DNA of 64,000 bases from Eledone cirrhosa. Its lineage: Eukaryota. The translations under genes and the position numbers were made by a program. Under the pieces are notes generated by a model. The model saw only the letters and a list, made by a program, of their open reading frames with translations, had not been told where the DNA came from and ran no database searches. The stretch covers positions 287,556,001 through 287,620,000 of the forward strand of contig OZ024743.1 of the NCBI GenBank assembly GCA_964016885.1. Direction: 5' to 3'. Below are positions 11,391-47,467 of this stretch, one piece after another. Each line of letters begins with the position of its first letter. Position 1 is the stretch's first letter.

Positions 11391-11557
11391 TTATTATTAT
11401 TATTATTATTATTATTATTGACGAAAGTGGATGTACGTTTTTTGAAGCTCCGTGAGTAAGCAATTTTTTGAGGATTAATTGTGGAGAATTGTTTATTTTT
11501 TTGTACCGCTGAAGCATTATAAGACATTCATTTGTATCCTGTGAAGGAATAACTCAT

Positions 11558-11585
11558 AATATTTGGGCCTTTTGGCCCAAATATT
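11558..11585 (+). promoter_or_regulatory. Perfect 12-bp hairpin in the Tx1 5' UTR
   Basis: aatatttgggcc-tttt-ggcccaaatatt, ~45 nt before the ORF1 ATG; hairpins occur at similar positions in copies C and D. Confidence 0.5.
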
Positions 11586-11629
11586 TGAACTTTATTTTGG
11601 AAAAATAATAATTTTTTTCTCAAAAAAAC

Positions 11630-13539
11630 ATGGCGGAGCCACGCCCCCTAGAGGCGGGTCTGCTGTCGTGCAACGGCGACTTGAGCGTTGAGAGGAGAGG
11701 TGGGGCGAGGAGCGCCACCAGTACGAGTGTGAGCAGCGACAGTGCCAGCACCAACGGGCCGAGCGGCGCGGAAGGTGGTAACAGCGACAACACCAACACC
11801 AACAAGCCGAACAGCGCAGAAGGTGGTAATAGCGAGAGCACCAACAAAACGAACAGCACAGAGAGTAATAGTAGCGACAGCAGCAGCACCAACAAGGCCA
11901 ACAGCACAGAGGGTAATCACGACACAGGGGAGAACAACAACAGCAATAGCAGCAGCAACACCAACAAGAACAACAACAGTGACAACACCAACAAGAACAC
12001 CTTCGCTGCTGTGGCAGCGGCTAAAAGGAGACCATGCTACAGCATCGACTTAACCAACAGAGAGGAAAAGTTGGCCCAGGCCTGGAAAATCATAAATCAA
12101 GAGCAGACCTGGGCAAACTTAACTGTCCCGGCAGAAGCCATTGAGGCAGTGGAAAAAAGAACGGTGCATTTCAGATGCATCTCAGTAGAGACAAAGAGGG
12201 CAGCGATAATCGCCCAAGCTGATATAGAAGCCGCACTGAAATACATCAGAGAGGACACAGACTTCATAGAGAGGGGCAGGCAATACGGCACCGTTTCGGT
12301 GCTGTTCAAGTCTGAAGCCCTCGCTGTGAAGCATTCAATGACCCCTTGCAAAACCAGCAAGGTCATAATGTACCCCTCCCACATGGGAAAACGAATAGCA
12401 CGTGTGCGCATTCCCAGGATTCCACCAGGACTTGATATGTGGTGGCTTCTGGGTTGCGTAATCGTGGAAGGAACGGATACAGTCCCGGTAGAGGCAACGA
12501 GAACTGCCAGGGACGACTGGTCCGGGGTTGATCTGGAGATACTGCTCCAAATCAGACCCGAAAACGTAAAAGCAATCCCGGACCACATCCGCCTCCAAAA
12601 CGGGAGGGTGTTGCATATAATGACTGAGGGCAAAAGGCCGCATTGTTTCCTTTGTGGGGAAACGACACACTTGCGAGCCTTCTGCCCTCAACTGCCGAAA
12701 AGCGCAAGGGGTCGAAAGATTCCACTGCTGGCGACGCCGGGACAAGGACCACCAGCAACACCGTCAACAATGGAACCACCAAAATTGCACACCCAAGGGG
12801 GAAACGAGGAAAGCTCTCCCATTCCCCCTCCCCCCCAAAATACACACACGAACAAGAACATAAACACTCACTCAGACACAAACACGCTCACAGCCACAGA
12901 CCCCTCATCCTCCAGCAGTGAAGATGAGGGAAAACCAAAGTCCCCCAAAATACAAAAAAACAAAACACAAAAAAAAAGAAATCCACAAAGCACAAACACC
13001 CCCACAAAAAAAATACACACACCACCCACACAAACATTTTCCCCACAGCATCACCAACACAACCACCAAAATCCCCCAAACGCAAACAAGCTAAACAGAC
13101 ACAAGAACAAAAAGACACACAAACATCAGAAACTACAGACACCCCACCCACAACAAACGCAGACACAATAGAAACAACACTAACAAAGCTATCACCACCA
13201 CAATCACACGAACAAATAAAACCCGAGCAACAAAACATTAAAAACTTCGTGCTTGCCAGAAGGGCCAACAAGGAATTGATGGCCCATGTAGCACGAAGCA
13301 CAAACATCGAAAAAGAGGGGGAAACATTTGAAGCGAGCACATTTCGCGTACCAGATAATTTGCTTCTGATGCGAATGTCGCTCGCTTCATACAAAGAAAT
13401 TCGAAAGAGCTTTCCTCGGGATGTGGGAACCCCGAACGTAAAACCCACTTCAAGACTATTAAAGGGGTTCCCAAAAGAAACCCCACAAACCATGGAGGTC
13501 GAACCACCCGACCTTCACAAGACCCCGGAAGGTAAGTAA
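11630..13539 (+). CDS. Tx1-like ORF1 (RNA-binding, zinc knuckle), frameshifted in its low-complexity part
   Basis: EGKRPHCFLCGETTHLRAFCP. ORFs 11630-13171 and 13249-13539 both align with ORF1 of copies C and D. Confidence 0.8.
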
Positions 13540-46700: not shown

Positions 46701-47145
46701 CCCGGGCAGGGATCCCTCAAAAAAGATTTGCCCTAGATGCGTGCGTCACGAAGAAACCGTTGCGCACGCATTGGTGCAATGTCCGGGCGTGGCTGATCTG
46801 TGGGGCTACGCCGAACGACTGCTGTCGCGGGTGGCGCCGATTCAATTGACCGCCGAGTCCATGATGACAATCAAACCGCCTCCCCTCTTCACAAAGGAAG
46901 CAAAGGCGGTTTTTCTGTGCGTAATAGCCATGTTGAAAGAGGTTGTTTGGTGGACACGATTGAAAGGTCTGAGGTCAGGCAACTTCCTCTCTGGCCATAG
47001 TCTGGTCTACTTCTTCCGATATCACTTCGGAAGAAGGATAAGAATGGAGAGAGAGGTGCTTGGCCACAGGCAGTTTTATGAAAGGTGGGTGATAGTGGCG
47101 AGAATGGCTCGTGTAAATGGGCCTTCTCTGTATACCATCCTGTAG
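43708..47145 (+). CDS. Tx1-like ORF2, 1145 aa: APE endonuclease + reverse transcriptase + CCHC
   Basis: LNARGL, ICET, VYSP, GDWN, SYLD, TDH; KSPGLDG, FRPITLLN, LDQSKAFD, RQGFPLP, YADD; CPRC...HALVQC. Uninterrupted. Confidence 0.95.
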   Translation: MDVLRVGCLNARGLGSTWKQAKLLNDLRSCSINVMVICETRISVVRQLAPTFDDFEVHASLCQPGGGGGVVVLLQKHLGLAVQVVHSDPEGRLLVLDVGSSESAALRLVAVYSPFGAERPDFFQRLETFLGTSRSLLLAGDWNDILDARWDYAGACPNRGGCNSLKGLLDRFNLVDRYRLDFPTVPTWTWRNHSGQSRSYLDRFLVRSKDRDILSCPEMRTVGYTDHKLVTCVVNLEKTHKQGPGYWKLNLSLPAKETYRNRISRLVKERLTGAIVNNRWWASLKREIRTESISYSKMLAADRNRNEKELTGKLEEAIKSEDVARVLASRTALNQFFDAKHEGCVIRSKIRALGNEGAKAVSWARVTEAKSGNRSTIRSLQDEDGRVIREPKQMCEAFQRHFARLFGGGEGPGGGVDFGPYLDGLPRLSSEEAESCEGPISADEIGDALSQCSRRKSPGLDGIPYELYLAMPVFFSELLEAVYCNWQQNGRIPCSVAKGVVTLVRKDENKGDSINNFRPITLLNTELKILAKVLAKRLALVVGGLVGDAQTCAIPSRSIHDNLHLMRYIIERVGNKPGFGGALINLDQSKAFDRVDHGYLDAVLAAAGFGPVFRGWITALHSNHICSRIKVNGYLSKPFEITRSIRQGFPLPSLLYVLTLEPLLRKLELLQGIPLEPGLSKAVSAYADDVTVMVSTDSEIEAIGTLLEDYERLSGAKLNREKSIGLQLGRWRGRLMPPDGVVGHWTEGPVKLLGVWFGPDLQVEKNWNEVTNKVFALTQKWAKCKLSLKGRAEVANIYIASVTYYRLTVVPCPKETLTTMERMLFQFLWKKRPPMVRRSICCQQPSKGGLGMPWLMMRRHALRLRHLQVFLTGQPVWAPFVKRAFPRLVSLTELQSWVKQRSGKLGDWHTECAQALRALWQAGQAIGGESTSSFYRGLVASRGDDTLGESLDMEEDELASLFGRTFGPGPMDNFQKSLAWQCYRGALPVRERLYRHGRPGRDPSKKICPRCVRHEETVAHALVQCPGVADLWGYAERLLSRVAPIQLTAESMMTIKPPPLFTKEAKAVFLCVIAMLKEVVWWTRLKGLRSGNFLSGHSLVYFFRYHFGRRIRMEREVLGHRQFYERWVIVARMARVNGPSLYTIL

Positions 47146-47360
47146 GTAAAGAAGTAAAGGAGAGGGGAGCACCTTCTCCATGTGCTCCCCGGGCAAAGGA
47201 TTGCACACTTTTTCGGGGGTGTGTGCAACCCCCATCACGTCCCCTCCCTTTTGAGGTTATTTTCGATTATTTTCATGTTACACCCTTTTTACTCGATTGT
47301 ATGTAAACTCCCCCTTTGTATTTGTCCCTTCTTTTTATGCCTTTATGGTAAATAAAGAAA

Positions 47361-47467
47361 TCTATCTATCTATCTATCTATCTATCTATCTATCTATCTA
47401 TCTATCTATCTATCTATCTATCTATCTATCTATCTATCTATCTATCTATCTATCTATCTATCTATCT
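47361..47467. repeat. (ATCT)n microsatellite, 3' flank of Tx1 copy D
   Basis: Seen directly. Confidence 0.95.

Follow-up and report, generated by a model that had tools for sequence, protein, structure and literature searches.

Are the microsatellites that bracket young retrotransposons in an octopod genome sites at which the elements inserted, or tails that the elements made themselves? The question is raised by a 64,000-nucleotide stretch of the 3.0 Gb genome of Eledone cirrhosa (contig OZ024743.1, positions 287,556,001 to 287,620,000, forward strand), hereafter the window. It holds three young families of Tx1-like long interspersed elements (LINEs), namely A, B/C and D, set among (ATT)n or (TATC)n/(ATCT)n repeats. 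Our analysis of the window and of the whole genome favours the first answer. These are young, high-copy LINEs whose branches occupy different pre-existing targets, likely through branch-specific nicking by their endonucleases, a reading to which we give a probability of roughly 0.7. A preliminary description of the locus had proposed a radiation of microsatellite-specific integrators. This holds for A, B and D across the genome, but a third target class, that of family E, is not a microsatellite. Family E, with about 330 copies and none in the window, is a sibling located in the 72-bp tandem unit of a piggyBac-like element, always the same position of the unit being used in its typical junctions.

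Target specificity is evident at the 3′ ends. Genome-wide counts were made with exact patterns, and reversed-pattern controls all returned 0. Family B has 9,314 3′ ends, with (ATT)3 next in 7,195 and TATCTAT next in a single case, which itself starts with ATT. Family D has 1,574, with ATCTATMT within 0–3 nt in 854 and (ATT)3 in 0; tails starting ATAT-ATCT or shorter fall outside the ATCTATMT pattern. Sampled 3′ flanks matched the family's class throughout (D 30/30, B 30/30). A set of 305 distinct 3′ ends resolved into ten subfamilies of at least eight copies, each dominated by a single tail class, and ATT and TCTAT tails were mixed in none of them. Poly(A), a trait of mammalian-type L1, followed 0/305 sampled 3′ ends. 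The proposed end structure, AATAAA plus 4–6 nt without poly(A), therefore stands except that the spacer in D is 3–4 nt. A published standard for target-specific Tx1 families asks that more than 20% of flanks be of one sequence type, as its source describes it (PMC4494074); the dominant type reaches 7,195/9,314 in B, at least 854/1,574 in D and 292/305 in E. An (ATGT)n tail combined with the common 3′ motif had one match genome-wide and hence represents no family. Among 120 ends taken in genome order from the start of contig C1, no family with other repeat tails appeared, and no pattern search was made for such tails.

The same motifs lie upstream. Family A has (ATT)4 directly at its 5′ end in 30/30 copies and (ATT)3 within 30 nt in 30/30; for C the figures are 27/30 and 30/30, and D has TCTAT in 29/30, all three samples being best-scoring matches and hence biased to young copies. 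Full-length 5′ junctions carry the motif in the preceding 30 nt in 44/44 copies of A and B and 24/24 of D. In the non-Tx1 part of the window, by comparison, the preceding 30 nt holds (ATT)3 at 0.4–0.7% of positions and TCTAT/CTATAT at about 5–6%. The decisive copies are those truncated at the 5′ end, which have the motif within 30 nt upstream in 8/11 cases for B and 11/14 for D. These counts exclude seven B rows (five in which the 5′ region changes at position 2148, two that begin at an internal ATT, at position 180), four B rows and one D row joined to other Tx1 sequence, and rows whose 5′ end lies beyond the fetched DNA. Because the 5′ flanks match, truncated copies included, the repeats are pre-existing targets and not merely tails. 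Tandem neighbours share their target class without exception (8/8, 7/7, 7/7). Two outcomes that the preliminary description had set against its own proposal, random 5′ flanks and equal use of both repeats by both subfamilies, were not observed.

The branches also differ in how they join their targets. In D, duplications that start in a TATC-type motif and run into non-repeat sequence were found in 14/38 copies, whereas 100 shuffles of pairs gave 0.76 on average and never more than 4. They span 15–22 bp, with two exceptions of 27 bp and 40 bp, the latter inside a minisatellite; boundaries were set by reference alignment, all-versus-all calling being too noisy. Some of these sites (L160, L170, L361) are not (ATCT)n arrays, and the target of D is therefore a short TCTAT/TATCT motif that is also present outside perfect (ATCT)n arrays. 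The earlier claim that D is bracketed by (ATCT)n is accurate for the window, with (TATC)n before and (ATCT)27 after; genome-wide the target is the short motif and not strictly (ATCT)n. Full-length 5′ junctions of D are ragged, with 21 different 10-mers in 30. In three D copies (L038, L042, L044) the 5′ junction partially repeats the element's own first bases, which suggests that the template was switched as reverse transcription came to its end. Such duplications occur in 0/62 copies of A and B, whose junction is nearly invariant, with ATT flush against the element. In 15 full-length A/B copies the perfect 3′ ATT run stops within 20 nt, but the 5′ junction does not show the same interruption. 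Any A/B duplication is therefore shorter than roughly 8–12 bp or absent, although the test is weak for copies with 15–19 nt runs.

Families A to E share one architecture, in which open reading frame (ORF) 1 precedes an ORF2 with an apurinic/apyrimidinic-type (APE) endonuclease, reverse transcriptase (RT) and C-terminal zinc-finger-like domain (Pfam Exo_endo_phos, RVT_1, zf-RVT). The modelled endonuclease (predicted local distance difference test, pLDDT, 91) has the L1 endonuclease 1vyb as its best structural match (E 5.7e-19), confirming the APE fold. A CCHC zinc knuckle in ORF1 is typical of Tx1, and the pattern CX2CX4HX4C occurs in ORF1 of A, B, D and E (Atlas CCHC clusters at 0.91), with a weak Pfam zf-CCHC match for E (E 0.0054, below cut-off). 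Full-length references measure 5,822 bp (A), 5,892 bp (B), 5,815 bp (D) and about 5,630 bp (E). The common 3′ motif occurs 11,340 + 30,257 times genome-wide (control 0), the first pattern barring G after AATAAA and so omitting B and D, which the second covers. Since 31 fetched ORFs align across more than 1,000 residues and 39/40 search matches lack a stop, the families are young. Rearrangement of B is also seen. Six copies (L192, L207, L208, L240, L335, L354) carry another 5′ region, joined to the B ORF2 at position 2148, and likely form a subfamily with a swapped ORF1/5′ untranslated region (UTR); others have rearranged interiors (L183, with an inverted middle segment, L205 and L214).

ORF2 identity is 75% between A and B, 67% between D and A, and 78% between E and D; B and D are colinear, as first reported, at 66.5% in end-to-end alignment. 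Their targets differ genome-wide, but the natural pair of close homologs that had been envisaged is not a minimal one, the endonucleases of B and D being about 60% identical (59.6%; A/B 72–73%). The closest named homolog of the D RT is an Argonauta hians protein (67%). D-like sequence is also present in sequence runs of other organisms, with contigs from three covering 25–30 of 30 bins, and the divergent query P0003 recovered this clade only, among 30 of 40 matches examined. The sole Tx1-named match bears an automatic name at 30% identity (P0017), and the trees were built without curated Tx1L, Keno, Kibi, Koshi or Mutsu references. In these trees the TCTAT families fall into a single clade that also contains E (FastTree 0.91–0.97; ultrafast bootstrap, UFBoot, 100). 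The ATT families group together when the endonuclease or the whole ORF2 is used (0.98–0.99); the tree from RT to the C terminus does not recover this group and instead places A with the TCTAT clade at 92. On this phylogeny, target class changed by a single switch of uncertain direction, which provides no independent contrast.

A difference in the endonuclease β-hairpin had been put forward as contributing to target choice, and both quoted hairpins, of B and of D, were confirmed (Table 1). Aligned with L1, residues T189–S199 of D fall on the L1 T192–S202 loop, and residue 194 on L1 P197, the loop tip that bends to the minor groove (PMC1950540). The loop reads TNRIGS in the ATT class (A, B and f6), RNHSGQ, ANRSGQ, ANRSGS, ANRSGT or TNRSGT in TCTAT subfamilies, and TNRSGT in E, several of the subfamily assignments resting on 2–5 copies. 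Among loop positions only the tip residue, 194 (Ile vs Ser), follows target class over the ten subfamilies; the other three of the four quoted differences do not. Residue 194, together with residue 184 (Asn vs Thr), is a candidate determinant of the target. In TRAS1/SART1, according to one report, the insertion site follows the swapped endonuclease (PMC1919474).

It is likely that the endonuclease of each branch nicks a different sequence: within ATT arrays for A and B/C, at TCTAT-type sites for D and its relatives, and at one position of the 72-bp unit for E. By analogy with the general mechanism of target-primed reverse transcription, the process would use an RNA that lacks poly(A) and stops shortly beyond AATAAA, its last few bases being target-like. 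This RNA end would pair with the nicked bottom strand and so assist the branch-specific process. The second nick would fall about 15–22 bp downstream in the D branch; in A/B it would follow an ATT, nearly opposite the first. Each insertion would leave the repeat intact, which may explain why later copies stack head to tail.

Several observations weigh against this reading. Perfect (ATT)3 units are missing after 2,119/9,314 B ends, the genome-wide count leaves the other 720 D ends unclassified, no class fits 15 of the 120 3′ ends sampled in genome order, and the upstream motif is absent from 3/11 truncated B and 3/14 truncated D copies. Nor is the loop residue singled out, because target class and phylogeny coincide on one split, across which 8 fixed endonuclease positions (the loop tip and seven others) and 30 further non-overlapping ones divide the classes. 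In L1 and R1Bm, loop grafts and point mutants changed endonuclease specificity only partially. The loop of E, TNRSGT, is identical to that of the TATC-targeting subfamilies f3 and f7, so that one loop accompanies two targets. This last point would suit a system in which targeting is real but set mainly by pairing of the target-like 3′ end of the RNA with nicked DNA, the endonuclease being loosely AT-preferring and loop differences incidental. All families' 3′ ends do pass straight into target-like bases without poly(A), and RNA-target pairing has been named as a possible added contribution (PMC1950540). Yet A and B, with endonucleases of only 72–73% identity, keep both loop and target identical, and duplication geometry varies by branch, which pairing at the first nick leaves unexplained. 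We consider pairing improbable as the chief determinant. Far less credible still is the notion that the repeats are element-made tails and that copies simply accumulate in repeat-rich DNA. The genome is indeed very rich in microsatellites, and 3′ runs differ in length and could have been extended by slippage; but truncated copies, which cannot bring a 5′ repeat, adjoin one well above background, and D duplications begin in the TATC motif and extend into unique flank. These observations largely refute it.

Family E poses a separate problem. It has 327 3′ ends and 305 5′ ends genome-wide; the same 11 bases precede 292/305 of the latter, and with a slightly broader prefix 336 3′ ends run into the 72-bp unit at one position. 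Empty junctions of this unit number 29,656. The host arrays belong to an element flanked by TTAA and bounded by 14-bp inverted ends, as in piggyBac, classed as non-autonomous from these ends only, with the left end reached in 6/19 windows of host sequence and the right in 3/7. The E junction implies either a loss of 5–7 bp or a duplication of almost one unit, which are indistinguishable in a tandem array. Identical junctions could also arise without targeting, if the piggyBac-like element had received E once or a few times and DNA transposition had then multiplied these insertions as cargo. The near-equal end counts and the shared 5′ junction would fit this, as would the fact that no truncated E copy was seen. 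A codon test, with 5 shared variants of which 3 are synonymous, favoured neither reading. However, 4–12 units precede E where the left host end was reached, several E copies stand in tandem within one array, and the two bases at the 3′ junction take three forms and a rare fourth. Moreover, at L396 all five units are a diverged variant, yet the E copy there agrees with the reference over its first 60 bases. Hitchhiking is thereby weakened: for E alone we hold it to be doubtful, and as an explanation of the whole system very improbable. Head-to-tail trains of five or six E copies occur at C1:4228981-4259391 and C10:40723318-40746838. One to many 72-bp units separate the copies of the C1 train, and the E copies listed on C1–C3 lie close to contig ends. 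The 72-bp unit also lies within a few bases of one D copy, in the 3′ flank of L174.

Within the window (Table 1), positions 7883–23092 are a single ATT array hosting a minus-strand Dong/R4-like LINE, then A joined to B, then C. The expected (ATT)n brackets were confirmed at the start of A, the end of B and the start of C. The end of C, AATAAA+GAACGC, is followed merely by the interrupted ATTATTGTTATTAT, and what had been taken for one A/B element is two families joined. The 5′ 2.6 kb of A are fused directly to a B copy from B position 2082, the join falling inside the endonuclease of A. A replicating chimeric A/B family was rejected, as the junction sequence has one match genome-wide; the join is a one-off deletion or template switch. 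ORF2 of this B copy begins at 14157 and has one frameshift, and its 3′ end is AATAAA+GAAAAC. The D copy has ORF1 at 41777–43720 (CCHC knuckle) and ORF2 at 43708–47145 (APE endonuclease, RT, zf-RVT), and ends in AATAAA+GAA directly before its 3′ repeat.

Table 1. Features of the Tx1-like LINE cluster and of the family-D locus in the window.
Feature	Position	Strand	Similarity or match
(ATT)13, left remnant of the cluster-hosting ATT array	7883..7921	+	
Dong/R4-like LINE, restriction-like endonuclease type; neighbour, non-Tx1	7922..11390	-	RVT_1 match
(ATT)n target, 5′ flank of A	11391..11419	+	
Family-A 5′ part: 5′ UTR, ORF1 (11630-13171), endonuclease start	11420..14007	+	98.7% to full-length L215 (5,822 bp)
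Family-B copy minus first 2,081 bp, fused straight to A	14009..17820	+	99.3% to L201 (5,892 bp)
B endonuclease hairpin WTWTNRIGSSRSYLD, loop-tip Ile at 14736-14738	14718..14762	+	
(ATT)16 separating B from C	17821..17868	+	
Copy C, older B-type: complete 5′ end, frameshifts, 660-bp internal deletion at 21592	17869..23078	+	91-93% to L201
Interrupted ATT run, right end of cluster	23079..23092	+	
(TATC)n target, 5′ flank of D	41445..41544	+	
Family-D copy, full length, both ORFs open	41545..47359	+	
D endonuclease hairpin WTWRNHSGQSRSYLD, loop-tip Ser at 44287-44289, aligned with L1 P197	44269..44313	+	
(ATCT)27, 3′ flank of D	47360..47467	+	

The Dong/R4-like copy lies in the same array as A, B and C but in opposite orientation, with (TAA)n on either side, and has lost about 525 bp of its endonuclease region. 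The CCHC + PD..D motif of its family was identified in copy L069, and TAA flanks in further copies. This young family (the window copy, L067, L069, L107, L118, L185 and others) occupies the same ATT/TAA arrays on the opposite strand; (TAA)n comes next in all 14 distinct 3′ ends, and A/B copies often adjoin. An abundant SINE-like (short interspersed element-like) repeat ending AGAAAC(A)ATTATT occurs at 33761–34170, 41255–41440, 50053–50278, 51546–51790 and many other loci. Its tail frequently serves as the ATT site of A/B copies, and the same repeat precedes the TATC array of D. Elsewhere in the window, a 54-bp minisatellite (24 copies, 97% matches) forms an array at 5799–7096 inside a decayed Tx1-like ORF2 fragment (5572–7380, plus strand, about 75% to family A). 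A satellite 1.7 kb long, built from CTGG/CTGA units with 12–36 bp periods, lies at 23449–25144, 350 bp downstream of C, and a 502-bp inverted repeat pair of 99.2% identity, 550 bp apart, at 56777–57278 and 57828–58329. Rfam found no ribozyme in 5000–48000, giving sub-threshold matches only, nearly all on simple repeats.

Microsatellite targeting by Tx1 elements is already established, and the system described here, real, genome-wide and richer than first read, extends a known type. Kibi is described in (TC)n, Koshi in (TTC)n, and Tx1 families of crocodilians in (TTCC)n/(TTTC)n (Kojima 2015, PMC4494074). As described there, these too are APE-type two-ORF LINEs in microsatellites, with related families on differing repeat units. 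They are vertebrate elements with polypyrimidine targets (TC, TTC, TTCC, TTTC), which none of our families uses; the ATT, TCTAT/(TATC)n and 72-bp-unit targets set the latter apart. In the literature searched, which did not extend to Repbase or Dfam, there was no report of an ATT- or TATC-targeting Tx1. Family E resembles Tx1L of Xenopus laevis, whose site is an internal tandem repeat; a comparison of the Tx1L and Tx2L endonucleases reportedly exists, a precedent for a natural pair of related Tx1 endonucleases. As far as the sources describe it, Tx1L inserts in the non-autonomous piggyBac element Tx1D (PMC4494074, PMC6719617), much as E occupies a fixed site within its own non-autonomous host, the element bounded by 14-bp inverted ends and flanked by TTAA. 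Unlike Tx1L, E is nested among TATC-targeting siblings, and therefore its piggyBac-site habit likely arose independently.

The ATT target likewise has a parallel, for Dong elements of Bombyx, Anopheles and Biomphalaria are described as targeting (TAA)n (PMC3812793). A/B use the same microsatellite, and a Dong-like element shares their array in the window. This neighbour (7922–11390), in opposite orientation, alone has the C-terminal restriction-like endonuclease that marks Dong/R4; A/B use an APE endonuclease, and none of A–E has the restriction-like type. For Octopus vulgaris, 80 L1-Tx1 consensus families are described, 13 of them recently active (PMC13282606), which, compared by description only, may include relatives of the families here. 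The main text of that report mentions no target preference for them and lacks the word 'target'.

How APE-type LINEs target microsatellites is poorly understood according to a review (PMC3812793), and about ten close subfamilies, many with open ORF2, with three target classes and differing junction geometry, represent a natural set for studying target choice and second-strand cleavage. Two unrelated LINE types, APE and restriction-like, use one microsatellite on opposite strands. Our results suggest that TATC and ATT arrays of this genome often contain multi-kilobase LINE pile-ups. A more ambitious reading, which we regard as unlikely, is that the more than 41,000 Tx1-like copies make up an octopod radiation not described before: still-intact siblings have switched both target and cutting geometry, one or both of residues 194 and 184 set the ATT/TCTAT choice, and RNA-target pairing adds the stricter site of E. 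If true, these families would provide a natural series for reprogramming APE-type integrators.

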